A stretch of DNA of 64,000 bases from a bacterium (lineage in GTDB: Bacteria > Vulcanimicrobiota > Xenobia > Xenobiales > JADMJV01), in assembly GCA_018266105.1 (NCBI GenBank), contig JAFEBA010000015.1, positions 472-64,471 on the forward strand, given 5' to 3'. The notes under the pieces were generated by a model. That model saw only the letters and a program-made list of their open reading frames with translations, was not told the DNA's origin and did no database searches. Below, one piece after another: positions 2,918 through 55,728 of this stretch (within the stretch, counting starts at the first letter, position 1; every line of letters begins with the position of its first letter). Both the position numbers and the translations under genes were made by a program.

Positions 2918-4366
2918 CTATGGCTTTTCTCCCAGGCTGCTCAAGCCTTCCCTGGCCTGTTTGCTGACCGTTTCAACCTGATGACCGGTCTTTAGAGCTG
3001 CTCGATAGTCAGCCGCCGCTTTCTTGTTCTGGCCAATGAGTTTATAAAGGTTGCCTCTCTGTATGTAGGCCTCCGCAAAGGCCGGTTCGATCTCGATGGC
3101 TTTGGCGTAGTCTTCGATAGCCGAGGTGTACTTGCGCTGTTTTTGCTTGAGCGAAGCTCGAGCCGTGTAGACGTAGCGCTGTTTGGGGTCGTATTTGAGG
3201 GCAAGATCATAATCTTGCATAGCCAGATCGTCTCGTCCCATCAAAACGTGGGTGTAGCCGCGCCCATAGTATGCGTCGGCCATTTTTGGGTCGAGCTCGA
3301 TGGCTTTGTCGTAGGCGGCCAGTGCCTGCTTGTATTGCTTGGCTTCGCGATAACCATAACCACGGGCGGCCTGAGCATGAGGGGACTTGGCTTCCAGCTC
3401 GGCGGCCTTGTCCAGGTCGGCCAGGCCCTTGGCTTTCTCTCCCAGTGCCATATACAGGTTGCCGCGAGAATTCAGGCCTGCAATCAGGGCCGGGTTCAAT
3501 TCCAGGGCTTCGTTGTAGTCCTTGAGTGCTTTCTGGGTTTCGCCGATGTCTCGGTAGGCGTCACCTCTGAAAAGGAAGGCCCAGAAATACTTCGGGTCGA
3601 GCTCGATGGCTTTGGTGAAGTCGGCGATACCCTTCGGGTAGTCTTTCTGGCAGCGAATGTAGACCAGTCCGCGGCGTGCGTAGGAGGCGGGCAGAAAGGC
3701 GTCGAGTCGCACTGCTTCCATGCAGTCGGCCATGGCTTCCTTACAGTGACCGAGTTCGAGGTGAGCAAAACCGCGCCCGGAAAACGGCAGGGCTTGCTTG
3801 GGGTCAATGGCGATCGCCTGCTCAAACATCTCGATGGCCTTCAGGTAATCGGCCATGGTCAAGTAAGTATCGCCTTTGCCGCAGTAGGGTACATAGTCGC
3901 GTGGATTCAACCGAATTGAATCGTCGTAGTCACGCAGCGCGTTTTCAAACTGCATCAGCTTAAGATAGACATTGCCTCGCAAGTTGTAGGTGTAGGCATT
4001 GCGGGGGTTCAGCTCGATGGCTTTGTCCAGGTCGGCCAGGGCTAACTGGCGGTGGTCGCCTTTGTCGTCGTAAAATACAGCCCGGTTGATGTAGGACTGA
4101 TCGTTGCCCGGAGCAAGTTCGACAGCTTTGTTGTAGTCTGCCAGCGCTTCTTCATAGCGCCCAAGGCGTTGGAAGCAAAGCCCTCGCTTCATATATGCTC
4201 CGGTCAGACGAGAGTCTGAGGCTAGAGCCTTGTTGTATTCCTCCAGGGCCTTCTCCCACTGGCGTTTTTCCACCAGCTGGTTGCCTTGTTCGTAGTAAAC
4301 ATGCCCCTGGACGCAACCGACCATCAAAAATCCGGCCAGAGCCAGACCAATCCATGCGCGCTTCAT
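2918..4366 (-). CDS. TPR-repeat lipoprotein.
   Basis: Signal peptide with lipobox (LMVGC) followed by about 12 tandem 34-aa TPR units (repeated W-LG-Y...A...Y..A..L-P motifs). Confidence 0.85.
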   Translation of the reverse strand: MKRAWIGLALAGFLMVGCVQGHVYYEQGNQLVEKRQWEKALEEYNKALASDSRLTGAYMKRGLCFQRLGRYEEALADYNKAVELAPGNDQSYINRAVFYDDKGDHRQLALADLDKAIELNPRNAYTYNLRGNVYLKLMQFENALRDYDDSIRLNPRDYVPYCGKGDTYLTMADYLKAIEMFEQAIAIDPKQALPFSGRGFAHLELGHCKEAMADCMEAVRLDAFLPASYARRGLVYIRCQKDYPKGIADFTKAIELDPKYFWAFLFRGDAYRDIGETQKALKDYNEALELNPALIAGLNSRGNLYMALGEKAKGLADLDKAAELEAKSPHAQAARGYGYREAKQYKQALAAYDKAIELDPKMADAYYGRGYTHVLMGRDDLAMQDYDLALKYDPKQRYVYTARASLKQKQRKYTSAIEDYAKAIEIEPAFAEAYIQRGNLYKLIGQNKKAAADYRAALKTGHQVETVSKQAREGLSSLGEKP

Positions 4367-41579: not shown

Positions 41580-44000
41580 ATGCCTGAAATCTTAGCCCCG
41601 GCCGGTAGCCGGGAAGCCCTGGAGGCCGCCCTCAAAGCGGGTGCCGACGCAGTTTACTTTGGCCTGGATGAAGGCTTTAATGCCCGGGCCCGAGCCCACA
41701 ACTTTCCCGTGGACGGATTGGCCGAGGTGGTCGAGCAGATTCATGCGGCTCGCGCCCGGGCCTATTTAACGCTGAACACGCTGATTTTCGAAAGCGAATT
41801 GGAGGCGGTGGAGCGCATCATCCGCGCCGCCGCTGAGGCCGGAGTGGACGCCCTGATCGTTCAGGACCCGGCCGTGTGTCTGCTGGCCCGAGAGGTTTGT
41901 CCCGAATTAGAAGTGCACGCCAGCACTCAGATGACCATCTCCAGTCCAGAAGGGGCCCAGCTGGCAAAATCCTGGGGAGTGACCCGGGTGGTGCTGCCGC
42001 GAGAGCTATCCCTGCAAGAAATCGAGAAATTCGCCGGGGCTGATGCCGGAGTGGAGATGGAAGTTTTCATCGCCGGCGCCCTGTGTATGTCATGGAGCGG
42101 CCAGTGTCTGAGCAGTGAGGCCTGGGGCGGTCGCTCGGCCAATCGTGGTCAGTGCGCTCAGGCCTGTCGACATCCTTACGAGCTGGTCGTGGATGGGCAG
42201 GTCCGGCCTTTGGGTGACCAGGCTTATCTGCTCAGTCCCCAGGATTTGGGCGGCTATGAGGCGGTTCAGGAGCTGGTACGTCTGGGAGTGCACACTTTGA
42301 AGATCGAGGGCCGCCAGAAAGACGCAGACTATGTCTTTCACGCCGTCAAAGCGGTGCGCGCCTGGCTGGATCAGGTCCCGGAAGCGGTTAAAGCCGAGCG
42401 CCTGCGCAATTTACAACTGGCCTACTCTCGGGGGATTGGACCGGGCTTCTTCTACGGCAGCGATCATCAGTCACTGGTGGAGGGGCGGACGCCTCGCCAT
42501 CAGGGTATTCTTTTGGGCAAGGTGGAGCAGGTCAGTGCCCCTCGGGTTAGCCTGCGCGCTCATGGCGACTTCACGCCAGAGGCGGGCATGGGCGTGGTTT
42601 TCCGCCAGCCCCGCCTGGTGGATCAAGATCAAGAGCAGGGCGGTCCTATCTTCGGGGTCACCCGGCAGAAAGACCATTGGGTTTTGCAGTTTGGCAATCC
42701 CGGACCTCGGCTGGGTCGGGTTCATGTGGGAGATGAAGTCTGGGTCACCAGTTCGCCGGAGGTTACTCGCCAGAGGCAGGCCAAGGCCTCGTTGCAGCGT
42801 TGGCCGTTGCGCCTGAGGGTATCGGGGGAGATGGGCCAACCACTGAAGGTGGAGGCTGAATGGGATCACGGCCGAGTGCAAGCCCTTTCGGATTCAGCCC
42901 TGCAGGCCGCCCGCTCGGGTGGCCTGGATCAGGATCGACTTCAGGAGAAGCTGGGCGGCTGGGGCGATAGTTGCTTTGAGGCCGAGAAAGTGGACGCTGC
43001 CGAGTTGCCACCCGGCCTGTTTTTACCTGTTTCTGAGCTGAAGCATCTCCGTCAGAGGTTGCGCGATCAGTTGGAACCGCAGTTGCGTGCCCTGGGAAAG
43101 AAAGCGACCTCGCCCGCTCGCCTGGCGCGTCGAAGTGTGGAGCCGCTCCACAGCGGGGTCGTACTGGAGCCGGTATGTCGCACACCCGAACAGTTGGAGG
43201 CTGTGATTGCGGAAGGCTGTCCGGGGGTCACCCTGGACTGGATGGAACTGGTCGGCTTAAACGGTGCCGTGGCTCGCGCCCGCGAAGCCGGTCTGCAGGT
43301 GGGTTTGGCCACCGTGCGTGTGCAAAAGCCGGGTGAGGAAGGCTATGACCGGCGCCTGCGGGCCCTCAATCCGGACTGGGTGCTGGCTCGCCACTGGGGG
43401 GCGGTCACGGGCTTTGCTCAGCACCGCCCGGGTCAGGTCCACGGAGATTTTTCCTTGAACGTGACCAACAGCCTCACGGCCTCTGAGCTGATTGGCCTGG
43501 GCCTGGACACGGTCACGGCCGCCCATGATCTGGACCAGATCCAGCTGGAGAATCTGCTGGCCAATTTTCCGGCGTCCCGCCTGGCCGTAACCGTGCACCA
43601 TCACATCTCCACCTTTCATACCGAGCACTGCGTCTACTCTCATCTGCTGAGCAATGGCAGGGACTACCGGGATTGTGGGCGACCCTGTGAGAAGCACCTG
43701 GTTGAACTGGAAGACCGCAAACACATCCGGCATCCCGTCATCGTGGATGTGGGCTGTCGCAACACGGTCTTCAATGGCGGCGCTCAGAGCTGCGTCAGTC
43801 TGGTTCCCCGCCTGCTGCAATTGGGCGTTCTTCGCTTCCGCGTCGAGTTTGTGCGTGAATCCTTTGAGCAGGCGCGCACCGTGCTTAACGCCTATCGACG
43901 AGTCCTGGAGGGCAGTCTGGAGCCATCCCAGGCGCGAGCTTTGATCGGGGCCCACGAACAGTTTGGCGTTTCTCTGGGAACAATGGCCGTTTTGAGCTAG
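41580..44000 (+). CDS. Peptidase U32 family protein (collagenase-like / YegQ-YhbUV family) with a long C-terminal extension.
   Basis: N-terminus MPEILAPAGSREALEAALKAGADAVYFG is the U32 signature. Conserved Cys cluster (CMSWSGQC...C.QAC). 806 aa. Confidence 0.8.
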   Translation: MPEILAPAGSREALEAALKAGADAVYFGLDEGFNARARAHNFPVDGLAEVVEQIHAARARAYLTLNTLIFESELEAVERIIRAAAEAGVDALIVQDPAVCLLAREVCPELEVHASTQMTISSPEGAQLAKSWGVTRVVLPRELSLQEIEKFAGADAGVEMEVFIAGALCMSWSGQCLSSEAWGGRSANRGQCAQACRHPYELVVDGQVRPLGDQAYLLSPQDLGGYEAVQELVRLGVHTLKIEGRQKDADYVFHAVKAVRAWLDQVPEAVKAERLRNLQLAYSRGIGPGFFYGSDHQSLVEGRTPRHQGILLGKVEQVSAPRVSLRAHGDFTPEAGMGVVFRQPRLVDQDQEQGGPIFGVTRQKDHWVLQFGNPGPRLGRVHVGDEVWVTSSPEVTRQRQAKASLQRWPLRLRVSGEMGQPLKVEAEWDHGRVQALSDSALQAARSGGLDQDRLQEKLGGWGDSCFEAEKVDAAELPPGLFLPVSELKHLRQRLRDQLEPQLRALGKKATSPARLARRSVEPLHSGVVLEPVCRTPEQLEAVIAEGCPGVTLDWMELVGLNGAVARAREAGLQVGLATVRVQKPGEEGYDRRLRALNPDWVLARHWGAVTGFAQHRPGQVHGDFSLNVTNSLTASELIGLGLDTVTAAHDLDQIQLENLLANFPASRLAVTVHHHISTFHTEHCVYSHLLSNGRDYRDCGRPCEKHLVELEDRKHIRHPVIVDVGCRNTVFNGGAQSCVSLVPRLLQLGVLRFRVEFVRESFEQARTVLNAYRRVLEGSLEPSQARALIGAHEQFGVSLGTMAVLS

Positions 44001-44029
44001 TCTCGAACCCCGTGTTTGGTGAAGCGAAG

Positions 44030-44118
44030 CGGCCAAACGCGGGTTAGGGACCAACGGAGTCGCGTGCCCTGAAGTTCGATTCTCATCGATGGCGTGGCAC
44101 GCGACGGAGGCTAGTTTC
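44030..44118. repeat. Copy 1 of a tandemly duplicated about 80-nt GC-rich structured element (candidate small RNA).
   Basis: The 68-nt core ccaacggagtcgcgtgccctgaagttcgattctcatcgatggcgtggcacgcgacggaggctagtttc is identical to copy 2. It contains a 10-bp perfect inverted repeat GTCGCGTGCC/GGCACGCGAC around a 27-nt loop that carries the palindrome CATCGATG. Confidence 0.7.
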
Positions 44119-44182
44119 AAACATCCTGTTCGGGAAAGCAGGAGACTTTGAGGCGAACCTGTGAGCCGTAAGTCTCCAGCGT

Positions 44183-44268
44183 CCGAACGGGAGTTGGGAA
44201 CCAACGGAGTCGCGTGCCCTGAAGTTCGATTCTCATCGATGGCGTGGCACGCGACGGAGGCTAGTTTC
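44183..44268. repeat. Copy 2 of the duplicated structured element, 150 nt downstream of copy 1.
   Basis: Same 68-nt core as copy 1, with similar flanks (aacgcgggttaggg vs aacgggagttggg). It lies between the convergent U32 peptidase and aroQ genes. Confidence 0.7.
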
Positions 44269-44272
44269 CCAC

Positions 44273-44707
44273 TCAGGCCTGACGGGCCAGCTGCTGGCCG
44301 GCTTGCAGTGCCAGGCGGTAACCCAGAGGACCCATTCCGCAAATGACGCCCCGGCAGACCGGGCTCAAGTAGCTGTGGTGGCGAAATTCCTCGCGGGCGT
44401 AGACATTGCTCAGGTGGACTTCGAAGACGGGCACGGAGAGGGCGGCCACCGCGTCACGCAAAGCCACCGAGGTATGGGTATAAGCCCCCGCATTCAGGAC
44501 CACGAAGGCAAAGTCGTAGGCTTCGTGCAGCCAGTCGATCAGCTGACCCTCATGGTTACTTTGCCGACACTCAACCAGCAGACCCAGTTCGCTTCCCCAG
44601 CTGCGACATTGCTGGACCAGGCTTTCATAGGTGGTCGTGCCGTACACGCTGGTTTCGCGCTGGCCCAGCAGATTCAAATTGGGACCGTTGAGCACCAGGG
44701 CTCTCAT
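44273..44707 (-). CDS. aroQ: 3-dehydroquinate dehydratase, type II.
   Basis: MRALVLNGPNLNLLGQRE...YG, then HLSNV...REEFRHHS: type II DHQase signatures. Confidence 0.9.
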   Translation of the reverse strand: MRALVLNGPNLNLLGQRETSVYGTTTYESLVQQCRSWGSELGLLVECRQSNHEGQLIDWLHEAYDFAFVVLNAGAYTHTSVALRDAVAALSVPVFEVHLSNVYAREEFRHHSYLSPVCRGVICGMGPLGYRLALQAGQQLARQA

Positions 44708-45726
44708 TTCAGTTCCTCCCAGCAGCGTTCGACTTCATCCAGGGTTACTGTGGAGCACACCTGAGCCCCTCCCGGCCTCTGCAGCAGCACAAAGCGAAGC
44801 TGACCGTCTTGATTCTTCTTGTCGCGTTTCAAGAAGGGAGGCAGTTGTGCGAAATCCAGAGCGGGTCGGCGTGTGGGCAGTTGGTAGCGCTCGAGCTGGG
44901 TCACCAGACGCTCCTCCCAGCTCGGATCGAGCCGGAGTTTCCAGCCACTGAGACGCAGCGCCGCGCGCAGACCGAAGCCGACCGCCTGACCATGATTCCA
45001 GCCGCTGTAGTTTTGAGCCGACTCAATGGCGTGAGCCAGAGTGTGACCCAGATTGAGGAAGGCGCGAATGCCTTGCTCAAGAGGGTCGGCGGCAACAATG
45101 TCCAGCTTGACCTGGCGGGAGCGCAGCACCAGCTCGGACTTCTGGTCGGGAGAGGGTGAGGTCGGCAGGTTCTCCAGGAATTCCCAATGCTCCGAGCTAT
45201 CCAGCAAGGCGTGTTTGAGCACCTCGGCCATGCCCGCATTCCACTCATGCACGGGCAAAGTGCTTAACAGGTCGGTGTCCAGGTAGACTAATCGCGCCGG
45301 ATAGAAGGAGCCGACCAGGTTTTTTCCCGCGGCCAGGTCGACACCGACCTTGCCTCCCAGACTGGAATCAACCTGAGCCACCAGGCTGGTAGGAACCTGA
45401 ACCAGAGGGAGCCCGCGCAAAAAGGTGGCGGCCGCGAAGCCGGCCAGATCTCCCACCACTCCGCCCCCCACCGCCACCAACCAGGTCTTACGGTCAACTT
45501 CCAGTTCCGCCAGTTGAGCGTAGAGTTGTTCGATCTGGGCCAGACATTTGCTGGATTCGCCAGCCGCCACCACCAGTCGCGGCTGGTGATTCCAGCTCCA
45601 GTCCAAACATTCGGCCAGATTGGAGTCGCACACCACCACCCAGCGTCGGGCTCCCAGCTTTTCCAGTGCAGCCGGTAATTGAGCCAGACGACCGCTGGCC
45701 AAAGTTGTTGAGGAAAAATCAATCAT
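44704..45726 (-). CDS. aroB: 3-dehydroquinate synthase.
   Basis: NAD/metal-binding motifs (GGGVVGDLAGFAAATFLRG, HTLAHAIE). The stop overlaps the aroQ start by 4 nt. Confidence 0.85.
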   Translation of the reverse strand: MIDFSSTTLASGRLAQLPAALEKLGARRWVVVCDSNLAECLDWSWNHQPRLVVAAGESSKCLAQIEQLYAQLAELEVDRKTWLVAVGGGVVGDLAGFAAATFLRGLPLVQVPTSLVAQVDSSLGGKVGVDLAAGKNLVGSFYPARLVYLDTDLLSTLPVHEWNAGMAEVLKHALLDSSEHWEFLENLPTSPSPDQKSELVLRSRQVKLDIVAADPLEQGIRAFLNLGHTLAHAIESAQNYSGWNHGQAVGFGLRAALRLSGWKLRLDPSWEERLVTQLERYQLPTRRPALDFAQLPPFLKRDKKNQDGQLRFVLLQRPGGAQVCSTVTLDEVERCWEELK

Positions 45727-45793
45727 GGTTTAGTCTTTTTCAAGTTGCATTAGCATTTCGAGGATTCCCCCGAATAGAGACGAACTTCAGCAA

Positions 45794-46381
45794 ATGGCCC
45801 AAATTCCCGCTGCCCGCCGAAACGTCTATTTGGTGGGCTTTATGGCCACTGGCAAGACGACCATTGGACGCGAGCTGGCTCGCTTGATGGGAAGAAAATT
45901 TGTCGATGTGGATCAAGAAATCGAAAGACGATTTGAGTTGACAGTTGCTGAGATTTTTGCTCAGCACGGTGAGAAGACCTTTCGTCAGGCGGAAGAGGAT
46001 GTGGCCCTCGAGTTGGCTGCCGAGACCAACCGCATTATTGCCACCGGCGGGGGAACCATCCTCAATCCTAAGATTTTCACCACCTTTGAGACCACAGGGA
46101 TGCTGGTTTGCCTTTACACTCAACAAGATGATCTGGTCAATCGCATTCAGCGCACGGATAAGCGCCCTTTGATGAAGGGGCAAAGTGAAGACCAGGTGCG
46201 CGAGCGGGTCGAGCGCATGTTGGAAGAGCGGTCCGCTGTTTACAATAAGGTCCCGGTTCGTATCGATACGACCAATTTGACTCCGCTGTCGGCCGCCAAG
46301 AAAATCCACGATGTGGTTTCGGTGCGCAGCCGGGTGCAAAAAGTGCGCGACGCTCTGGGCGGCGTGCTGGACGTGACCTAG
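45794..46381 (+). CDS. aroK: Shikimate kinase.
   Basis: Walker A VYLVGFMATGKTTIGRELA, then DQEIERR...GE..FR, typical of AroK. Confidence 0.85.
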   Translation: MAQIPAARRNVYLVGFMATGKTTIGRELARLMGRKFVDVDQEIERRFELTVAEIFAQHGEKTFRQAEEDVALELAAETNRIIATGGGTILNPKIFTTFETTGMLVCLYTQQDDLVNRIQRTDKRPLMKGQSEDQVRERVERMLEERSAVYNKVPVRIDTTNLTPLSAAKKIHDVVSVRSRVQKVRDALGGVLDVT

Positions 46382-47181
46382 AGGCTGGCCTTCAGTGCTG
46401 CCAGCATCGGTTGGGGCTCGGGTTTGTCGCCGGTCCACCACTCGATGGCTCGAATGGCTTGATGCACCAGCATTCCGCATCCGTCCAGGATCAGCGCTCC
46501 CTTGTCGGCTGCCTGACGTAACCAGAGGGTAGGACTGGGGTTGTAGATCAAATCGCAGGCGATCAAGCCAGGGGGCAGGCGTTCCGGCCAGGCTTGGGGC
46601 AGTTCCTCGGTCTGGGGCCACATGCCCAGCGAGGTGGTCTGAACCACCAGGCAATTGGCCTCCAATTCGTCCGGGAAATGCTCGCCCAGGCGCTCTCCCG
46701 GTTGAAGCAGAGCCCGGGCGCGTTCCGGAGTGCGATTGAAAATGACGATCTCCCTGGCCCCCTGGGAGCGCAAGACGTACAGAATCGCCCGGCAGGCGCC
46801 GCCTGCCCCCAGCACCAGCGCTTTGCGGCCTTTGATCTCGGCGTTGAGTTCCTCTTGGAAGCTATCCAGCCAGCCCTGGGCATCGGTATTGTGACCTTCC
46901 CAGCCAAGCGGTCCGGGTCTCAGGCAATTGATGGCGCCCACCGCCCTGGCCTGTTGGGAGGGTGTGCAAACCTGAAAGGCCGCTTCTTTCAGAGGCAGGG
47001 TCAAATTGATTCCGAGAAGATTCGGCCCGTTTAGCGCCTCGAGAGTCTCGGCCAGTTGTTCCGGCCGCACCTCGCGTTTCTCAAAATGCCAGGGCCGGCC
47101 CAGTTGAGCGTAGGCGGCTTGATGCAGTTGGGGAGAACGCGAGTGGGCGACCGGGCTGCCCAGCAGGTAGGCGGTTTTCAG
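46378..47181 (-). CDS. aroE: Shikimate dehydrogenase with a proposed non-canonical CTG start.
   Basis: The ORF from the first canonical start (GTG at 47070) lacks the conserved AroE N-terminus. The same frame upstream, with no intervening stop, encodes KTAYLLGSPVAHSRSPQLHQAAYAQLG, matching the AroE substrate-binding motif (G.PI.HS.SP..H). The only start-like codon is a CTG overlapping the dapA TGA stop (CTGA). From that codon the product is 267 aa, the canonical size. Confidence 0.6.
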   Translation of the reverse strand: MKTAYLLGSPVAHSRSPQLHQAAYAQLGRPWHFEKREVRPEQLAETLEALNGPNLLGINLTLPLKEAAFQVCTPSQQARAVGAINCLRPGPLGWEGHNTDAQGWLDSFQEELNAEIKGRKALVLGAGGACRAILYVLRSQGAREIVIFNRTPERARALLQPGERLGEHFPDELEANCLVVQTTSLGMWPQTEELPQAWPERLPPGLIACDLIYNPSPTLWLRQAADKGALILDGCGMLVHQAIRAIEWWTGDKPEPQPMLAALKASL

Positions 47182-48083
47182 TGTGCGCCCGCCAGCACGC
47201 CGGCCTGCTCCAGCAACGGCTTGAGGGTTGCGACCTCGGAATCGCTGGCGCCATAAAGGGGAGCGCGCACGCCGCCCACCGGAAAGCCCACCAGTTCCAG
47301 GGCGGCTTTGACCAGCACCGGATTGGTGGTTGCGAACAGCCCCTTGAGCAGGGGGAAGATTCTCAGGTGGATGGCTCGGGCTTCATTGATTCGGCCGGCC
47401 TCAAAATGTTCGATCATCTCGCGCATCTGGGGTCCCACCACGTGACCGGCCACGCTCACCACGCCCACGCCTCCGGCCGAGAGGATCGAAAGCGTATGAG
47501 TATCGTCCCCTGAGTAGATGTACATGGACTCAGGCTTGTGACTGATACGAGCGGCTAGATCGCTGACCGGGTCCACATCCGGCAAGGACTGTTTGACGGC
47601 CACGATGCGGGGGTGTTCGGCCAATTTGGCCAGCGTCTCTGGAGCGATTTCCACGGCCGTGCGGCCCGGGATATTGTAGAGCATGATCGGCAGGCTGGTG
47701 GCTTCGGCGACCTCCAGGAAGTGGCGGCGCTGCATGTCCTGGGTGGGCTTATTGTAGTAAGGGGAGACCAGCAGCAGTGCATCGGCTCCACAATCGGCGG
47801 CCGCTTTGGAGAGTTCGATGGTGGAACGGGTGTCGTTGCTGCCGGTTCCCGCAATGACTTTGGCCGAGGCTGGCAGAACCTCGCGCACACCTTTGAAGAG
47901 AGCCTTCTTTTCGTCCTTGGTCAAAGTCGGGCTCTCGCCAGTGGTGCCGCACACCACCAGACTGTCGTTGCCTTGCTCGATCAGGCGCCTGGCCAGTTCC
48001 TTGGATCGATCTAAATCCAGATCCAGATTATCCTTGAAGGCTGTGACCATGGCGGTGACGACTCGACCAAAGGGTGGACGCAT
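47178..48083 (-). CDS. dapA: 4-hydroxy-tetrahydrodipicolinate synthase.
   Basis: TAMVTAF...GTTGES..L and the Schiff-base lysine region (YNIPGRT) are typical of DapA. Confidence 0.9.
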   Translation of the reverse strand: MRPPFGRVVTAMVTAFKDNLDLDLDRSKELARRLIEQGNDSLVVCGTTGESPTLTKDEKKALFKGVREVLPASAKVIAGTGSNDTRSTIELSKAAADCGADALLLVSPYYNKPTQDMQRRHFLEVAEATSLPIMLYNIPGRTAVEIAPETLAKLAEHPRIVAVKQSLPDVDPVSDLAARISHKPESMYIYSGDDTHTLSILSAGGVGVVSVAGHVVGPQMREMIEHFEAGRINEARAIHLRIFPLLKGLFATTNPVLVKAALELVGFPVGGVRAPLYGASDSEVATLKPLLEQAGVLAGAH

Positions 48084-48087
48084 TGAG

Positions 48088-48510
48088 TTACTCCTCGCGA
48101 TTTTTTGCCGTGCTCTCTTCGCAGGCCACCGCGGGGGTGCCTGCGGCCTCGGCCAGGACTTCAGAAAAGGCGGGGGTTTCCACGGGCGGAGCCTTGGATG
48201 TGAAGGCGGTTGCGGCCTTTCTTTTCTTGGAAGCGGCCGTGGGTCTGGGCTTGATGCCGATGCCCCAGATGGTTCCGGCGGTGGCCAGGGTGGGGGTGAG
48301 AAGCAGATTGAAGCCCAGTGTGTAGATGCCCAGGCGATAAGGGCCGGGGGCCAGCCAGCTGCACAGCAGCGCCAGGCTGCAGGCCAGCAAACACCCCAGC
48401 GCTCCGCCCCTCAGCCCCTGGTACAGGCCCCTGCCTCGTTCCGGCCGCCAGTAGCGACTGAAGTAAAGCAGGTTGGCCATGACCACGGCCGTGGCCAGCA
48501 CTTTGAACAT
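48088..48510 (-). CDS. Small hypothetical membrane protein (3-4 TM helices).
   Basis: Hydrophobic segments throughout. Its stop lies 5 nt upstream of dapA (same strand), consistent with co-transcription. No homology recognised. Confidence 0.4.
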   Translation of the reverse strand: MFKVLATAVVMANLLYFSRYWRPERGRGLYQGLRGGALGCLLACSLALLCSWLAPGPYRLGIYTLGFNLLLTPTLATAGTIWGIGIKPRPTAASKKRKAATAFTSKAPPVETPAFSEVLAEAAGTPAVACEESTAKNREE

Positions 48511-48609
48511 CCTTTCTTAATTAGGGATTCAGGCGGGCTGGCCTGCCTGCGGCAGCAGGAAAGCTCAAGTCGAGTGCCAATAGTTGAATAACTTTCAATT
48601 CATTGGAGG

Positions 48610-49095
48610 TTGTTCATGAAGCGGTTGCTGGTTTTGATGCTGCTCCCGGCTTTGAGCTTGGCTCAGCCCCTGACCCCTCCCCGGCCCTACGCGGGCGGCG
48701 ACTATTGGGTGCGAAACGAGAATACCTGGTCTGAGTGGGAGGTTGTGAGCGCCGAGTTGACCGGGCATCTCAGTCCGGCCTGGCCGGTCAACGACGAGGA
48801 GCCGGGCGCCCTCTTGAATCTGGACTGGCGTATGGGCGGTTGGCCGGTGGTCATCAAATTCCCTAAAGGACAGCGTCTCAAGGCGCGCCCTGACTCGGTC
48901 GGCGGTAGTATGTGGAAAGATTTTGACGGAAACACCTGGCTGCGGGTGCAGACGGGGGAGAATCAGTTCTGCTTCGTTCGCGCCAATTCGCGTTTTCTCA
49001 AGCCGGTACCGCCGACCCCCTCTGCAGCCCTGAGTGCCCCGGTGGTTCCCATCAGCAACAGCCAGGATGCTTCGCAGCCTGCCGCCGAGCCTTGA
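48610..49095 (+). CDS. Secreted hypothetical protein.
   Basis: Signal peptide MFMKRLLVLMLLPALSLA. No recognisable domain. Confidence 0.4.
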   Translation: MFMKRLLVLMLLPALSLAQPLTPPRPYAGGDYWVRNENTWSEWEVVSAELTGHLSPAWPVNDEEPGALLNLDWRMGGWPVVIKFPKGQRLKARPDSVGGSMWKDFDGNTWLRVQTGENQFCFVRANSRFLKPVPPTPSAALSAPVVPISNSQDASQPAAEP

Positions 49096-49114
49096 TTGAA
49101 TCTTGAAAGCGGCC

Positions 49115-49669
49115 TTACTTGGCCAGTTCGAAGGACTTGACCAGGGCCAGGAAGGTGTTTTTGTTGGCGTCGTAGACCTCGGGGTCAGCCGTAAAGACAA
49201 GTGAGTAGAGCACCTTGCTCTTGGTGAAAATTTGCACCTGCATCCCTTTTTGCTTGGGGTGTTCGATGCTGCCGTCCTCGAGTTCGTATTCCATGTGGTA
49301 GGCGTTATCTTTGTCGGGTTCGTCCAGTTTGTGCTCGTACCACTGCTTGACGATTTTGCCTTTCCGCGAAAAGACCGCGTTGGCCAGTTGGTTCATGAAT
49401 TCTTGCGTTTGCGGCATATTGTCGCTGACGGTCACGGCGATATGACCGTATCCTTGGGGCGGGGTAAAGACCACCGCCGCCTTCTCGCCCTTGGCGTCGG
49501 GCGAATCCTCTTCTTTGACGGCCCAGTCTTTGGGTGGGGTCAGCGAGACCTTGTGCTTGTAGATCGTGTAAGTCTTGACATCGCTGACTGCGGCCGGTTT
49601 GCCGCAACCCCCCATAAGTAAGGTGGAAGCCAACAAAAGCAGAACTCCACTCTTGAAAATCCTTCTCAT
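49115..49669 (-). CDS. Hypothetical lipoprotein.
   Basis: Signal peptide with lipobox LLMGGC. Lys/Glu-rich mature domain. Confidence 0.5.
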   Translation of the reverse strand: MRRIFKSGVLLLLASTLLMGGCGKPAAVSDVKTYTIYKHKVSLTPPKDWAVKEEDSPDAKGEKAAVVFTPPQGYGHIAVTVSDNMPQTQEFMNQLANAVFSRKGKIVKQWYEHKLDEPDKDNAYHMEYELEDGSIEHPKQKGMQVQIFTKSKVLYSLVFTADPEVYDANKNTFLALVKSFELAK

Positions 49670-49739
49670 CCCGCGCCTTTCTTTCTGGCAGGTTGTTCAA
49701 CCTGCAGGAACCCGTAAAACCCCTTGGAATGGGCCGATC

Positions 49740-50255
49740 ATGATTATCGACTACGCCGGACATAGCCCGGAAGTCTTCCCCGACGTTTTTCTGGCTCCCC
49801 AGAGCGTGCTGATTGGTCAGGTGCGACTGGCTTCACAGTGTTCGGTCTGGTTCAACGCCGTGCTCCGGGGCGATAATGATGAAATTTCCATTGGCGCTCG
49901 CACCAACCTGCAAGAGAACGTGATTTGCCACGTGGATTCCGGTTTTCCCCTGAAAGTGGGGGAAGATTGCGTCATCGGCCACGCCGCCGTGCTGCACGGC
50001 TGCACCCTGGGTAACCGCGTGCTGATTGGCATCGGAGCCAAGGTCCTGAACGGGGCGGTGATCGAAGACGAGGTGGTGGTGGGAGCGGGTTCGTTGGTGC
50101 CGGAAGGCGCTCGCCTGCAAAGCGGGTATCTCTATTTGGGAGTTCCGGTCAAGCAGGTGCGCCTGCTGCGGGCGGACGAGCTTCAGCGTCTGACGCGCGG
50201 GGCCGCCCACTATGTGGAAAAAGGCGAACGCTATCGCCTGATGTTGCAAGGATAA
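49740..50255 (+). CDS. Gamma-class carbonic anhydrase family protein (hexapeptide-repeat, left-handed beta-helix).
   Basis: Hexapeptide repeats with conserved His residues (ICHVD, IGHAAVLHGC). 171 aa from the ATG at 49740; the track ORF starts upstream at 49575. Confidence 0.75.
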   Translation: MIIDYAGHSPEVFPDVFLAPQSVLIGQVRLASQCSVWFNAVLRGDNDEISIGARTNLQENVICHVDSGFPLKVGEDCVIGHAAVLHGCTLGNRVLIGIGAKVLNGAVIEDEVVVGAGSLVPEGARLQSGYLYLGVPVKQVRLLRADELQRLTRGAAHYVEKGERYRLMLQG

Positions 50256-50266
50256 GGAAGGCCCCT

Positions 50267-51265
50267 ATGAGCTACAGCGTTGCCGTCGTCGGCGCCACCG
50301 GAGCCGTCGGCTCCACCATGATCACCTCTCTGCAGGAGCAGAAGTTTCCCGTTTCCCAACTACACCTGCTGGCCACGGCCCGCAGCGCAGGCAACGAGTA
50401 TCACTGGAACGGTCAGGCGCTGAAGGTTCAGGACATCGAGACCTTCGATTGGACTGGAGTGCAGGTTGCTCTCTTCGCGGGCGGCGAGATCGCGTCTGAG
50501 AAATTGGTGCCCAAAGCTCGGGCGGCAGGGGCGGTCTCCATCGACAATAGCGCCAGTTTCAGGATGCATGCGGATGTTCCGCTGGTGGTTCCCGAGGTGA
50601 ATCCCGAGGCTCTGCGTCGACATCAGAAAATCGTGGCCAATCCGAACTGCTCCACCATTCAGATGGTGGCCGCCCTCAAGCCCTTTCTGGATCTGGGCCT
50701 GAAGCGCGTGACGGTATCCACCTATCAGTCGGTTTCGGGAACGGGTAAGGATGCCATCGAAGAGCTGGAAAACCTGACCAGGGCCTGGGCCCGCGGTGAG
50801 AAGGCCGAACACAAGGTCTATCCCGCTCCCATCGCCTTTAACTGTCTGCCGCAGATCGGTAGCTTCCTGGAAGACGGTTTCACCGGGGAGGAGCGCAAAA
50901 TGATGGAGGAGACGCGCAAGATTTTGGACCTGCCCGACCTGCGCATCAGCGCGACCTGTGTGCGCGTCCCCGTCTTCTATGGGCATTCTGAATCGGTTCA
51001 CCTGGAACTGGATAAGCCTTGCAGCGTGGCTGAAGCCGAAGAGAGGCTGAGGAGTATGCCCGGTGTGCAGGTGCAAAAGGCCGGTCCCGGTCCAACCCCT
51101 CTTCAGGCCGCCCATCAAGATGACGTGCTTGTGGGTCGCATTCGCAAGGACCCTTCGGTAGAGAACGGACTTCAGTTCTGGGTGGTGGCTGACAATCTGC
51201 GCAAGGGCGCGGCCTCGAATGCCGTTCAGATCGCCTGCAAGATGTTGGAGATGAAGCTGCTGTGA
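50267..51265 (+). CDS. asd: Aspartate-semialdehyde dehydrogenase.
   Basis: VAVVGATGAVG NAD-binding motif. Active-site region NPNCSTIQMV. C-terminal dimerisation domain. Confidence 0.9.
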   Translation: MSYSVAVVGATGAVGSTMITSLQEQKFPVSQLHLLATARSAGNEYHWNGQALKVQDIETFDWTGVQVALFAGGEIASEKLVPKARAAGAVSIDNSASFRMHADVPLVVPEVNPEALRRHQKIVANPNCSTIQMVAALKPFLDLGLKRVTVSTYQSVSGTGKDAIEELENLTRAWARGEKAEHKVYPAPIAFNCLPQIGSFLEDGFTGEERKMMEETRKILDLPDLRISATCVRVPVFYGHSESVHLELDKPCSVAEAEERLRSMPGVQVQKAGPGPTPLQAAHQDDVLVGRIRKDPSVENGLQFWVVADNLRKGAASNAVQIACKMLEMKLL

Positions 51266-52467
51266 ACATCATTGTGCAAAAATTCGGCGGCACCTCAGTG
51301 GCCACCGCTGAGGGTCGCCAGCGCGTGGCCGATAAGGTGATTGAGGCTCTCAACAAGGGGCTTTCGCCGGTGGTGGTGGTCTCAGCTATGGGCCGTCATC
51401 CGGAGCCTTACGCCACTGACTCTTTGCTCTCGTTGGTGGGCGCCTATCAACCCTATCAGGACAAGCGCGAACTGGATCTGCTGATGGCCTGCGGCGAGAC
51501 GATCTCCACCGTGGTGATGGCTCACCACCTGCGCAGTCTAGGCTATCAGGCCGAAGCCTTTGACGCCTACCACGCCGGCATTCGCTGTACTGATGTGCAC
51601 GGCGACGGCCAGGTGTTGCGGGTGGTCACCGACAACCTGATGGCCAGCTTGCGAGCCGGCAATGTGCCGGTGGTCACCGGGTTTCAGGGCGTCAACAGTC
51701 AGCTCTGTGTCACCACCCTGGGTCGCGGCGGCAGCGATACCAGCGCTGTGGTGCTGGGAGCGGCTCTGAAGGCTCAGGTGGTTGAGATTTATACGGATGT
51801 GGACGGAGTGATGACGGCCGACCCGCGAGTGTGTGATCGAGCTCAGATTCTCTCCCAGGTCAGCTTCGAAGAAATGGGTGAGCTGGCCGGCGAGGGCGCC
51901 AAGGTGGTGCATCCGCGGGCTGTGGATCTGGGGGCCGACCACAACGTTCCGGTCTGGGTCAAAAATACATTCGGTAATGCCTACGGCACCTTGCTTTCAC
52001 CCGTTCCGCCCCCGCAGGCGATCGAAAAGACCAGGGTGGTTACGGCCGTGGCTCACATGATCGGGCTTTCTCAGGCGCGCATCGACTTTCAGGGCGACCA
52101 CATTATGGAGGAGCGCAATCGAGTTATGCAGGCGATGTCCGAGCGCGGCATCAACCTGGATTTGGTCAATGTTTGCGGTCCGCAGATGTATTTTATCTTC
52201 CGTACTCAGTATCTGAGTCAGGCCGAGCAAGCCCTCAAGGAGCTGGGCTTCAGTTGCGAACTGCGCAATGACTGCGCCAAAATCTCTCTGGTGGGGGCGG
52301 GCATGCGTGGCACGCCCGGTGTTGCCTATCGAGCTCACCGCTGTCTCTCCGAGGCGGGTGTCGAGGTCTATCACAGCACCGACTCGAACATCACCATCAG
52401 TTGCTTGATTCCGGCCGACAAGCTGCGGGCAGCAATTGAAGCTGTGCATAAGGAGTTCTCCTTGTGA
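51262..52467 (+). CDS. lysC: Aspartate kinase (monofunctional, with C-terminal ACT domains).
   Basis: IVQKFGGTSV, TGFQG, and ACT repeats. The start overlaps the asd stop (ATGA). Confidence 0.9.
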   Translation: MNIIVQKFGGTSVATAEGRQRVADKVIEALNKGLSPVVVVSAMGRHPEPYATDSLLSLVGAYQPYQDKRELDLLMACGETISTVVMAHHLRSLGYQAEAFDAYHAGIRCTDVHGDGQVLRVVTDNLMASLRAGNVPVVTGFQGVNSQLCVTTLGRGGSDTSAVVLGAALKAQVVEIYTDVDGVMTADPRVCDRAQILSQVSFEEMGELAGEGAKVVHPRAVDLGADHNVPVWVKNTFGNAYGTLLSPVPPPQAIEKTRVVTAVAHMIGLSQARIDFQGDHIMEERNRVMQAMSERGINLDLVNVCGPQMYFIFRTQYLSQAEQALKELGFSCELRNDCAKISLVGAGMRGTPGVAYRAHRCLSEAGVEVYHSTDSNITISCLIPADKLRAAIEAVHKEFSL

Positions 52468-52949
52468 GGGGCTGGTTGCTGCTGGTTCTGCTCTTTTGGG
52501 TGGTCCCGGCTGGAGCTGAGCCGGTCGCCAAGAAACTTTGGGTGGCCAGAGCCAGGCAGGGCTGGGTTCACTCCACAGGGGTGTGGCTCAAGCCTCCGGC
52601 TGGCGCTAAAGTGAGCTGTCAGGACGACGGTCTGCACATTGAGACCGAGGAGTATCTGGTCCAGCTCTTCGCCTACCCTTCCGAAGTGGATGCTCAGGCT
52701 ATGATGGAGGCCACCCGGGATGCTTCCGAGCGGACGTTTCCGGGCTTAAAGTTCGGCACTGTCCAGGAATACGAGAAGGACGGTGGGGTCAAGGCTTTTG
52801 CCCAAGAGGGCACTTCCGATTCAATCGGCTTCCTGCTGGTTCGTATCAAGCGCACTCCGTCCAATCTTGTGTTGTTTTCGGTGATGAAGAGCAAGCAGGC
52901 CCAGGAGGCCACTCTTTCGATCATGTCCTCGCTCAGGTATCCGAAGTAA
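52464..52949 (+). CDS. Secreted hypothetical protein.
   Basis: Signal peptide MRGWLLLVLLFWVVPAGA. Overlaps the lysC stop (GTGA). No recognised domain. Confidence 0.4.
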   Translation: MRGWLLLVLLFWVVPAGAEPVAKKLWVARARQGWVHSTGVWLKPPAGAKVSCQDDGLHIETEEYLVQLFAYPSEVDAQAMMEATRDASERTFPGLKFGTVQEYEKDGGVKAFAQEGTSDSIGFLLVRIKRTPSNLVLFSVMKSKQAQEATLSIMSSLRYPK

Positions 52950-53559
52950 GGCTGCAGGTCAGCAGAGTGTGGCTGTAGGGGATGTGCAGCAGGTTATGGC
53001 GGCACTCGGCCTGGACCTGTGCGAATCGCTGTCCGGCCAGGCTCTGGTAGCCCTGCAGGTCTCGTACATTCTGCCCGCGGTCTCGTGAAATCAGCCAGCG
53101 AGCCAGCGGATGTTGATCCGGGGACCAGCAGCAATCTACCGTGAGCAGGCGACCTCCTGGCTTGAGCAGCTGGACGGCCAGCTCAAACAAGCGGACCGCC
53201 GCCTGGTCGTCGAGGTGGTGGAGCAGGCCCACGGCCAGAATGCAGTCGAACGCTCCCAGGTCGAGGGCCGTGTCCGCCCTTAGTTCCGCTTGGAAGAAAC
53301 GACCGCGCTGCCCGAATCGCGCCCTGGCGGCCTGGATGTACTCTTCGCTGGAGTCAAAGCCGACGTAGTCAACTCCTGGTAGGTGAGCCAGCAAGTCGGC
53401 CGGACCGCATCCGATATCCAGCACCCGCAGCCCGGCCCGGGGGGCCACGCGGGCGGCGATGTGGCGTCGCAGGCGCTCGGCTCCCACCAGCCACTGCATG
53501 GCCTGGTAGATCAGAGGATGATTGAGCACGGCACGCAGGCCGGAAGTGATTTCAGCCAT
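52933..53559 (-). CDS. Class I SAM-dependent methyltransferase.
   Basis: Motif I LRVLDIGCGPADLL, plus post-I/II acidic residues. Confidence 0.75.
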   Translation of the reverse strand: MAEITSGLRAVLNHPLIYQAMQWLVGAERLRRHIAARVAPRAGLRVLDIGCGPADLLAHLPGVDYVGFDSSEEYIQAARARFGQRGRFFQAELRADTALDLGAFDCILAVGLLHHLDDQAAVRLFELAVQLLKPGGRLLTVDCCWSPDQHPLARWLISRDRGQNVRDLQGYQSLAGQRFAQVQAECRHNLLHIPYSHTLLTCSLTSDT

Positions 53560-53560
53560 G

Positions 53561-53586
53561 AAAAAAGGGCCTTGAGGGCCCTGATT
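53561..53586 (-). terminator. Rho-independent terminator downstream of acpP.
   Basis: On the minus strand AGGGCC-ctca-AGGCCCT is followed by TTTTTT. Confidence 0.55.
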
Positions 53587-53605
53587 TCTTCATCAAGGTC
53601 GGCTT

Positions 53606-53848
53606 TTAGCCGCCCGCGATGCGCTTTTCGATGTAGGTAACAGCTTCCTTGACGTTGGTGATGCCCGAGGCGTCTTCGTCAGGAATCTCGATTTTGAACT
53701 CGGTCTCGAAGGCCATGACCATTTCCACGGTGTCGAGCGAGTCGGCTCCCAGGTCTTCCTGGAAAGAGGCGGTTTCGGTAACCTGCTCCTCTTCCACTCC
53801 GAGCTGCTCCATAACAATCTTCTTAACGCGTTCTGCAACTTGTGCCAT
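53606..53848 (-). CDS. acpP: Acyl carrier protein.
   Basis: 80 aa. The [11 protein letters not shown] phosphopantetheine-attachment motif is present. Confidence 0.95.
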
Positions 53849-53937
53849 TTTGAAATTCTCCTATGCGTGCCAGGTCCGGCCGCTTGCTAGTTCTGAGGTG
53901 GGGACCAGGGCTTGATAGCCTTTCAGTACCCGGAAAA

Positions 53938-54678
53938 TCAGGTGACCATTCCACCGTCTACATGAAATACCTGCCCCGTGATATAGCTGGATCCAGGGCC
54001 TGCCAGGAAGCGCACGAGAGGTGCGATATCGCCTGAATTCCCGATACGTCCGAGGGGTATTTGCGAGAGGATGGATTCCCGAACTTTTTCTGGCAGCACC
54101 GAGGTCATATCCGTTTCGACATAACCTGGTGCCACCGCATTCACGGTAATGGAGCGCGAGGCCAGTTCCTTGGCCAGCGATTTGACCAGGCCGATGGTGC
54201 CGGCCTTGGAGGCGGCATAGTTGGATTGGCCGGCGTTGCCAATCACGCCGATGACCGAACTGATCTGAATGATGCGCCCGGATTTCTGGCGGAGCATGAT
54301 TTTGGCAGCGGCCTTGCTGGACACGAAGGCGCTGCGCAGGTTGACCTGCATCACCTGATCCCAGTCTTCGTCCTTCATTTGAATGATGAGTTTGTCGCGG
54401 GTGATACCGGCATTGTTGACCAGAATGTCGAGTCGGCCCATCTGTTTGTGGGCTTCGCCGATGGCGGCCTCGAGTTGGGCGGCGTCGGCCACGTCGGCCG
54501 CGTAGCAATGAGCTGTGCCGCCGCCTTCCTGGATGGCCAGAGCTGTGGCCTGAAGGCCTTCCAGGCTGCGCGCCAGCAGGGCCACTTCGGCTCCCCCTCG
54601 GGCCAGTTCAGTGGCAATGGCCGCGCCGATCCCGCGGCTGGCCCCGGTCACCAGGGCCTTCTGTCCTTGTAGTTCCAT
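53938..54678 (-). CDS. fabG: 3-oxoacyl-[ACP] reductase.
   Basis: SDR motifs TGASRGIG, NNAG and YAASK. Confidence 0.9.
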   Translation of the reverse strand: MELQGQKALVTGASRGIGAAIATELARGGAEVALLARSLEGLQATALAIQEGGGTAHCYAADVADAAQLEAAIGEAHKQMGRLDILVNNAGITRDKLIIQMKDEDWDQVMQVNLRSAFVSSKAAAKIMLRQKSGRIIQISSVIGVIGNAGQSNYAASKAGTIGLVKSLAKELASRSITVNAVAPGYVETDMTSVLPEKVRESILSQIPLGRIGNSGDIAPLVRFLAGPGSSYITGQVFHVDGGMVT

Positions 54679-54693
54679 AGACTTCTCCAGTCG

Positions 54694-55728
54694 TTAAGAA
54701 TTGCTCAGGCCGCCCCAACGCAGTGCGACCGACGCCCAGGAAAGGCCGCCGCCGAAGCCGACCAGCACGACCAGGTCGCCGTTCTGGATTCGGCCCTGTT
54801 CCAGCGCCTCGGAGAGGGCGATGGGGACCGAGCCGCAAGAGGTATTGCCGTAGTGCTCCACATTTGAAAAGACTCGCTCAAGAGGCAGGTTCAGGCGCTT
54901 GCGCGAGGCCTCAATGATCCGGGCATTGGCCTGGTGAGGAATGAACAGGGCCACCTGTTCGGAGGTCAGGCCGGCGTTTTCCAGGGCTTTGATGGCCGCT
55001 TCGCCCATCACCGAAACCGCAAAGCGAAAGACCTCCGGTCCTTCCATTTGCAGATAGTAGTCGCCCGGGTTGACGCCTTCGCTCCAGCTCGGCAGGCGGC
55101 TGCCACCGGCTTTGACCGTAAGATTGGGGCCGCCGGCTCCGTTGACGCCGGTATGCACCCCGATGATTCCGTAGCCTGGTTCAACCGGACCCAGCACCAC
55201 CGCTCCCGCTCCGTCTCCGAAGAGCACGCAGGTGCTGCGGTCCTTCCAGTTCATCAGGCGGGTCATGCAGTCGGCACCGACCACCAGCACGCGTTGAAAG
55301 GTTCCGCTGGCCACAAACTGAGCGCCGGTGACCAGTGCGTAAACGAAGCCGGAGCAGGCAATATTCAGGTCAAATCCGCCGGCCTTGCTGGCTCCAAGCT
55401 GGTGTTGCACCATGCTGGCTGTGGCCGGCATGGGGCAGTCCGGGGTCATGGTGGCAACAATGATCAGGTCCAGATCCTCGGCCCGGGTCCCCGAGGCCTG
55501 TAGCGCTCGGCGGGCAGCTTCCACCGCCAGGTCAGAGGTGGCCTGGTCAGGTCGAGCCCGACGCCGTGCCCGGATGCCCGTCCGTCCCACGATCCATTCG
55601 TCCGTGGTGTCGACGAATTTGGTCAGATCCTGGTTGGTGACGACTTCTTCGGGGACAAAATGACCCACCCCAAGGATACCGACTGGTGTCTTGTAGCCTT
55701 GGGGTGAGTTGGGTGCCTGCGATGTCAC
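54694..55728 (-). CDS. fabH: 3-oxoacyl-[ACP] synthase III.
   Basis: Catalytic triad contexts ACSGF, HQAN and GNTS. Confidence 0.9.
   Translation of the reverse strand: MTSQAPNSPQGYKTPVGILGVGHFVPEEVVTNQDLTKFVDTTDEWIVGRTGIRARRRARPDQATSDLAVEAARRALQASGTRAEDLDLIIVATMTPDCPMPATASMVQHQLGASKAGGFDLNIACSGFVYALVTGAQFVASGTFQRVLVVGADCMTRLMNWKDRSTCVLFGDGAGAVVLGPVEPGYGIIGVHTGVNGAGGPNLTVKAGGSRLPSWSEGVNPGDYYLQMEGPEVFRFAVSVMGEAAIKALENAGLTSEQVALFIPHQANARIIEASRKRLNLPLERVFSNVEHYGNTSCGSVPIALSEALEQGRIQNGDLVVLVGFGGGLSWASVALRWGGLSNS

Follow-up and report, generated by a model that had tools for sequence, protein, structure and literature searches.

RUP elements of Streptococcus pneumoniae and Correia elements of Neisseria are flanked by a TA duplication, and IS630, an insertion sequence (IS), has a preference for CTAG with duplication of TA. 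MITEPsy1 of Pseudomonas syringae, a 100-nt MITE (miniature inverted-repeat transposable element) derived from IS5, has CTAG or YTAA as its insertion site and duplicates 4 nt (PMC3189936). Small repeats tend to lie between convergent genes (PMC3184786). Comparative analysis of 64,000 nt from a Vulcanimicrobiota genome (assembly GCA_018266105.1, contig JAFEBA010000015.1, positions 472 to 64,471; the whole stretch is referred to here as the window) indicates that the spacer between the convergent genes of a U32 family peptidase and the 3-dehydroquinase AroQ is probably made up of a non-autonomous, non-coding mobile repeat, present twice in head-to-tail arrangement, that resembles MITEs and REP sequences and has a basic unit of ~117 nt. 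The family is previously undescribed. It is set apart from MITEPsy1, RUP and Correia by their descriptions, and the papers searched contained no description of such elements in Vulcanimicrobiota/Eremiobacterota. It would be an ordinary kind of bacterial repeat, unsurprising to specialists in mobile elements, and the first small mobile repeat family described, with an alignment and a covariance model, in Vulcanimicrobiota/Eremiobacterota.

The open reading frame (ORF) of the U32 peptidase (41580..44000, + strand, 806 aa; its matches carry PF01136/PF12392 and a 100% match is named U32 family peptidase) converges with that of AroQ (44273..44707, - strand, 144 aa; a type II 3-dehydroquinase, PF01220), and the two repeat units fill the 272-nt gap that separates the stops of U32 (44000) and aroQ (44273). 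The names of U32 homologues place the organism in Vulcanimicrobiota/Eremiobacterota. A repeat search of the window identified direct copies at 44028-44118 and 44178-44268 (91 nt, 93% identical), which start 150 nt apart, as a preliminary description made from the sequence alone had stated. All six mismatches are within the first 22 nt, leaving an identical run (44050-44118 = 44200-44268) of 69 nt, so that the identical core of the preliminary description is upheld and its length of 68 nt is corrected. The perfect 10-bp GC-rich stem (GTCGCGTGCC/GGCACGCGAC) and the 27-nt loop containing a palindrome (CATCGATG) that had been described are indeed present in each copy. With up to three mismatches allowed, a 55-nt core pattern occurs at two places in the window, namely the two copies, and in none of 100 shuffles. 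The unit had been put at about 80 nt, which is too short: homology extends further left, with unit 1 (43998-44114, 117 nt) bounded by the CTAGs at 43997 and 44111 and unit 2 (44112-44264, 153 nt) by those at 44111 and 44261, the two units abutting. The criteria by which MITEs were judged here (a size under about 200-400 bp and lack of coding capacity, multiple dispersed copies in a genome, terminal inverted repeats, a flanking target-site duplication, past mobility, and a cognate autonomous IS with matching ends) were taken from PMC3184786. With regard to size and coding capacity, the units are 117 and 153 nt long and the concatenated six-frame peptides of the core have no match among 5.8 billion protein clusters.

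The unit was delimited by a full-length alignment of six copies: the two in the window (W1 and W2) and four in a related genome (L016, L017a, L017b and L018, described below). The order of parts is (C)TAG, TCTCRAAC, hairpin C, GTTRGGRACCAAC (hairpin B), GGA, hairpin A, GGAGG and CTAG; if TA is taken as the duplication, the unit starts with GTCTCRAAC after (C)TA, has ACCAACGGA between hairpin B and hairpin A, and ends with GGAGGC before TA(G). Hairpin C is variable in sequence and conserved in structure, and hairpin A is highly conserved. The left flanking CTAG (43997..44000) is a target site or target-site duplication, inside which lies the U32 stop codon TAG (43998-44000). The body of unit 1 (W1, 44001..44110, + strand; 110 nt, or 117 nt counting TAG...CTAG), defined by the alignment and the consensus fold, has a covariance model score of 136 bits, and includes hairpin C (44010..44042; a 10-bp stem, 44010-44019/44033-44042, with four pairs showing compensatory changes, and a loop with the conserved AGCGAAGCG), the small hairpin B (44043..44055, GTTAG GGA CCAAC in the consensus fold) and hairpin A (44059..44105, the hairpin of the preliminary description; outer stem as above, inner stem TCGAT/ATCGA at 44076-44080/44085-44089), all on the + strand, while its TAG (43998-44000) and TCTC (44001-44004) pair with GAGGCTA (44107-44113). 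After the CTAG common to both units (44111..44114) comes the body of unit 2 (W2, 44115..44260, + strand, 146 nt), with hairpin C at 44124-44133/44183-44192 and hairpin A at 44209-44255, followed by the right flanking CTAG (44261..44264). Unit 2 alone has an extra nested hairpin (GCAGGAGACTT...AAGTCTCCAGC, 44138..44180, + strand), a perfect stem that forms a 36-column insertion in the alignment inside the conserved loop of hairpin C; the other five copies have a gap here, and no similar sequence was found in the window or any fetched locus. The conserved loop of hairpin C also contains GCGAAGC (44024-44030 of the window, and likewise in L016, L017a and L018), a heptamer that forms an unusually stable DNA mini-hairpin and may hint at a single-stranded DNA stage.

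Relatives of the window organism have the two genes without the element. The U32 and aroQ genes overlap by 4 nt in L009 (U32 91% identical to that of the window), L010/L011 (89%) and JGI 3300059473 (87%), and are 3 nt apart in L002 (GCA_046327835.1, 89%). In the alignment of the junctions, the relatives show one clean gap between GAGCTA(G/A) and the 3' end of aroQ, their empty site being a 4-nt overlap of both stop codons, CTAA or TTAA. Because the relatives have no spacer and the gap is single and clean, the 272 nt is a lineage-specific insertion at overlapping stop codons, which argues against a conserved small RNA locus. The comparison shows that the element landed in the TA of a CTAR tetranucleotide, the former overlap of the U32 and aroQ stop codons, so that insertion exactly on overlapping convergent stop codons pushed the genes 272 nt apart. 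The TTTCCCAC that separates the element from aroQ (44265..44272, - strand) is probably the former 3' end of aroQ, judging by the sequence and the junction alignment: at 44265-44275 of the minus strand the aroQ frame reads ...QA TGA GTG GGA AAC TAG, in which V-G-N lies past the present TGA and the next stop is the TAG of CTAG. Thus, aroQ may once have ended at this TAG, overlapping the U32 stop codon as in the relatives, and may have gained the earlier TGA later. In the product of an independent assembler, a Logan contig of sequencing run SRR24111707, the same passage from aroQ into the element is found; the contig stops after 32 nt of the element (28 nt of the repeated core), which is attributable to the repeat, as a 31-mer graph is expected to break there; the repeat accounts for short-read assembly breaks at this point in the lineage.

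The family is dispersed in a related genome. A scan of the GTDB representative genomes with the 3' 21-mer GTGGCACGCGACGGAGGCTAG identified three contigs of one metagenome-assembled genome (MAG), GCA_017307785.1 (Vulcanimicrobiota bacterium SCN18_25_8_15_R3_B_62_28, with a U32 peptidase 84% identical to that of the window). Four full-length copies are present at three loci of this genome (L016, L017a, L017b and L018), L017a and L017b being a second head-to-tail dimer, so that two of the four loci (the window and L017) carry dimers. The first unit in the window starts right after the U32 stop codon TAG, and the closing CTAG of unit 2 is 8 nt before the aroQ stop; similarly, L018, between the convergent genes of HupE/UreJ (+) and a TPR protein (-), starts right after the HupE stop codon TAG and ends 5 nt before the TPR stop. 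The L017 dimer is located between the 3' end of the AnmK gene (-) and a CxxCxxCC-domain gene (-), antisense to both, and L016 is located between a helix-turn-helix gene (-) and an acetyltransferase gene (-), in the sense orientation. Every copy is within ~100 nt downstream of the stop codon of some gene, and the orientation of the copies with respect to genes is inconsistent. The generalization that all copies lie between convergent genes was rejected, as Pfam domains and the G+C content of third codon positions place L016 and L017 between co-directional genes. A second empty site corresponds to L018: the gap between the HupE gene and its neighbour is 1 nt in L019 (93% identity) and 0 nt in JGI 3300059473 (84%), versus 119 nt from the HupE gene to the TPR gene in L018, mostly filled by the element. 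Past mobility is thus indicated by filled and empty sites at two loci, U32/aroQ and HupE/TPR.

The two halves of the element differ in their conservation. The 3' halves are identical within each genome (W1 = W2; L017a = L018) and 90-93% identical between genomes, with L017b an outlier (73%), versus 71-88% identity among the 5' halves, of which that of W1 is nearest to L017b and that of W2 is nearest to L016 and L017a. Between W1 and W2, there are mismatches at 16 of 58 aligned positions (28%) in the 5' half and at 0 of 59 in the 3' half (Fisher p = 4e-6), and for each of the two 5' halves the other genome has a copy that is nearer than the adjacent unit. The diverged 5' halves and identical 3' halves indicate that the window units did not arise by a recent local duplication followed by drift, and the term "tandemly duplicated" in the preliminary description is inaccurate: by their sequences, the units are two diverged family members, head to tail, which differ in the 5' module and agree in the 3' module. 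Such mosaic conservation would follow if continued spread is limited to lineages whose 3' module is intact, or if the module has been homogenised within each genome; a functional RNA would also be expected to show it.

All six copies are bounded by TA, which is part of CTAG except for a single left-hand GTAG and a single right-hand CTAA. CTAG is depleted ~10-fold in the window (24 observed, versus 230 expected from base composition), and three of these 24 flank the repeat units; CTAA, TTAG and TTAA are likewise depleted in the window. The flanking target-site duplication of a MITE is represented on both sides of all six copies by TA (TAG, mostly CTAG), with a length of 2, 3 or 4 nt. As the element has G...C ends (5'-GTCTC...GAGGC-3' if TA is the duplication), its insertion into C-TA-G would rebuild CTAG on both sides, and a rebuilt CTAG beside a resident copy, where CTAG is otherwise rare, would favour the formation of head-to-tail dimers.

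Fold statistics were calculated from the six copies, which represent four loci in two genomes. On the + strand, RNAalifold predicts a four-way junction of 39 pairs (-48.4 kcal/mol), closed by the element's own ends (TAGTCTC/GAGGCTA, a 7-bp terminal stem) and including the three hairpins. In this consensus fold, which all six copies share, 95.3% of cells are paired (31-42% in slid controls) and seven pairs have changes on both sides, a result equalled by none of 500 shuffles. In L017b, the outer stem of hairpin A is GCCGTGCGTC/GACGCACGGC in place of GTCGCGTGCC/GGCACGCGAC, with compensatory transitions at four stem positions discernible by eye; the pair count scores three of these four changes, a one-column gap in the alignment having shifted the fourth. 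The minus-strand consensus fold is weaker (-38.8 kcal/mol) and does not have the terminal stem, which on the + strand requires an invariant U-G pair. The evidence of G-U versus A-C pairs as to strand is mixed, with five pair positions favouring the + strand and six that have A-C on it. As single-stranded DNA, the element folds well on both strands (z-scores of -2.7 to -4.3). Its termini constitute a short inverted repeat, CTAGTCTC/GAGGCTAG, seven pairs long with an invariant T-G among them (5 nt when TA is counted as the duplication), with no likeness further inward. The unpaired junctions ACCAACGGA and GGAGGC and the loop AGCGAAGCG are nearly invariant among the copies.

Like MITEPsy1, RUP and Correia, the element is ~100-150 nt long, non-coding, dispersed and intergenic; it is flanked by short direct repeats at (C)TA(G), occurs in some close relatives and is missing in others, forms stable stem-loops and tends to be located at the 3' ends of genes. 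Unlike these, it has a terminal inverted repeat of only 5-8 nt (18 nt in MITEPsy1, ~26 nt in Correia), an interior of three separate hairpins closed by the termini instead of one long hairpin, head-to-tail dimers at half of its loci, and no known parent IS. It also shares with REP/BIME and REPIN elements (mobilised by RAYT) and the SPRITE/BOX repeats of S. pneumoniae the features of GC-rich extragenic palindromes, compensatory stems and a bias toward convergent genes (PMC3184786), as well as a combination of conserved and variable modules and a likely passive effect at the 3' ends of mRNA. Whereas REPs are palindromes of 20-40 nt that usually form inverted pairs in high copy number, the element is a 117-nt composite with direct copies; unlike REP/REPIN it has no conserved GTAG at the foot of a hairpin and appears to be low in copy number, and unlike SPRITE it has no T-tract. 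Assignment to REP/REPIN was rejected for a three-hairpin composite of this length that occurs as head-to-tail copies at no more than one locus per ~70-90 kb of the sequence examined.

The consensus fold might itself be the functional unit of a structured RNA family, either a cis-acting module of 3' untranslated regions (3'-UTRs) or a set of small RNAs, the copies of which were spread or retained for a role as RNA, such as transcript stabilisation or protein binding. The extent of pairing, the seven compensatory pairs, the near invariance of unpaired junctions and loop, the greater stability of the + strand fold with its invariant U-G pair, and the position of all copies at most ~100 nt downstream of a stop codon are in favour of such an RNA, but we regard it as unlikely, because the element is missing at the orthologous sites of close relatives at both tested loci, lies antisense to both neighbours in L017 and sense in L016, and gives mixed evidence as to strand, while compensatory changes in its palindromes would also be expected of DNA hairpins recognised by a transposase. 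No promoter-like site was found at the window locus on either strand, and an intrinsic (Rho-independent) terminator was rejected since no site with a hairpin and T-tract was found on either strand of 43700-44600, consistent with the earlier remark that no T-tract follows the hairpins. Rfam 15 had no match to the window at the gathering threshold, and at E<=10 the region and L017 gave only noise (mir-711, 14.9 bits; bxd_5, 10.5 bits), so that a known RNA family is not supported. A tRNA or tRNA-derived element was also rejected: ARAGORN identified no tRNA across the window and loci L016-L018, the four-way junction measures 117 nt and has 10-bp arms, and the sequence GTTCGATTC, whose likeness to a T-loop had rightly been dismissed in the preliminary description, is not conserved (GTTTGATTA and ATTTCATTA in other copies). 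A cloverleaf-shaped four-way fold closed by the element termini does exist, but it is not that of a tRNA. Of the two possibilities that had been proposed for this locus, a novel repeat is supported by the dispersed copies, the two empty sites and the lack of an Rfam family, whereas a pair of small RNAs is not supported, given the absence of the locus in the closest relatives, the lack of a promoter or terminator, and the inconsistent orientation. Identification as a repeat accounts for a structured spacer of 272 nt and prevents its misreading as two small RNA genes.

IS200/IS605 ends carry similar hairpins that are bound by the same TnpA. A single-stranded "peel-and-paste" element, either an IS200/IS605-derived PATE or a REP-like sequence mobilised by a Y1 (HUH) transposase, would insert 3' of (C)TAG without a true duplication, and as its right end would also be CTAG, the next copy would land head to tail. 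Like PATEs, the element has a subterminal hairpin at either end (at a distance of 8-12 nt), hardly any terminal inverted repeat, and oriented insertion beside a fixed tetranucleotide; both dimers are head to tail, the stems tolerate G-T wobbles, and both strands fold well as single-stranded DNA. We nonetheless assign this model a low probability. Hairpin C on the left and hairpin A on the right show no relation in sequence, the tetranucleotides 5' of the hairpin feet differ (RAAC versus CGGA) though the presumed cleavage sites are the same, and the copies are neither single palindromes of 20-40 nt nor inverted pairs, as REPs usually are. Unlike in PATEs, the same tetranucleotide is present on both sides in the manner of a duplication, and neither a TnpA nor a TnpB gene was found in the vicinity; the sequence examined, which fell short of whole genomes, revealed no Y1 transposase. 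A typical IS200/IS605 PATE was therefore rejected on account of the unrelated hairpins and the (C)TAG on both sides. We consider it very improbable that the event was purely local, with a native 3'-UTR or terminator hairpin duplicated in tandem, or that it is an artefact of assembly. Cores identical over 69 nt at a distance of 150 nt, in a MAG that is by nature a metagenomic assembly, would be consistent with such an event, but three contigs of another genome carry homologous copies, the 5' halves differ by 28% and each has a nearer counterpart in that genome, a native spacer that could be duplicated is lacking in the relatives, and a second assembler reproduces the junction of aroQ with the element.

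For the non-autonomous mobile repeat, which we favour, mobilisation would occur in trans, through recognition of the conserved 3' module (hairpin A and GGAGGC) and the short terminal inverted repeat by a transposase. Lineages that keep the 3' module would stay mobile while the 5' hairpin drifts, its structure being kept through compensatory changes; mobility tied to the 3' module would explain the identity of 3' halves within a genome. Insertion into C-TA-G would leave CTAG on each side, presenting a fresh target next to the resident copy from which tandem dimers would arise. Once in place, the GC-rich hairpins are, speculatively, probably passive at the ends of both convergent transcripts, as a barrier at the RNA 3' end or an insulator. 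With low confidence, a mobile module of structured RNA (or single-stranded DNA) can be envisaged instead, in which the four-way fold has a role at the 3' ends of genes (such as protecting transcripts or insulating convergent transcription) and the 3' hairpin is a putative site for a genome-specific protein; binding by such a protein would explain why this hairpin is identical within genomes and different between them. If true, the protein-bound module would represent a new class of 3'-end elements, cloverleaf-shaped and domesticated, in a phylum with almost no cultured members.

Several observations weigh against the favoured mobile repeat. Within ~73 kb of the genome of the window organism (the 64-kb window and ~9 kb beyond it in L015), or ~94 kb when 21 kb of another contig of the same run (L020) is included, this one locus is the only one, and multi-copy status is seen only in the related MAG GCA_017307785.1. 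No autonomous IS or transposase with matching ends was found in the ~224 kb examined, and the terminal inverted repeat is far shorter than those of typical transposase-mobilised MITEs. The flanking CTAG could be part of the element rather than a true target duplication, and the combination of conserved unpaired junctions and loops with covarying stems also fits a functional RNA. Exact-word scans of JGI metagenomes, IMG/VR, plasmids and phages identified no further copies. The 5' 21-mer had one match among JGI metagenomes (L014, contig VAPR01000304.1), which was judged to be due to chance and rejected: at 1196-1226, a 23-nt exact match to the 5' junction is located inside a 348-aa ORF without the 3' stem, and ~0.5 chance 21-mer matches are expected in that collection. 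The stem-gap-stem pattern had two chance matches in coding sequence of IMG/VR and the other patterns had none, and blastn of the element found no match in plasmid and phage collections. The loop 23-mer had no match in the GTDB representative genomes, which is due to the difference of the loop between genomes. Searches of the rest of the window and all loci with the spacer by blastn-short and nhmmer recovered only the Logan contig of the same strain, and covariance model R1 found no new copies over ~224 kb.

In the gene neighbourhood of the element (44273-54700 of the window), aroQ is found by Pfam domains to be among genes of the shikimate pathway (DHquinase_II, DHQ_synthase, SKI, Shikimate_DH) and the aspartate family (DHDPS, Semialdhyde_dh, AA_kinase). 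The gene order of this region is shared with the relatives L002 and L010, and the neighbours of the U32 gene differ in the more distant L003 and L006. The Logan assembly also breaks near position 57,982 of the window, at the end of contig SRR24111707_214 (L015); a second repeat at this break was rejected because the site is in conserved coding sequence without a repeat, presumably that of a CTP synthase-like protein, and the break is probably due to sequence shared with other members of the community. Other repeats in the window are of different kinds. At 6977-7290, tandem runs of GGTCCA/GATCCA hexamers are followed by GGCTC-rich units of 21-27 nt, which are probably low-complexity coding sequence. 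At 3062-4053 and 9256-11650, segments of 43-64 nt are repeated at multiples of 102 nt (204, 306, 510), which fits 34-residue TPR-like protein repeats in large genes.

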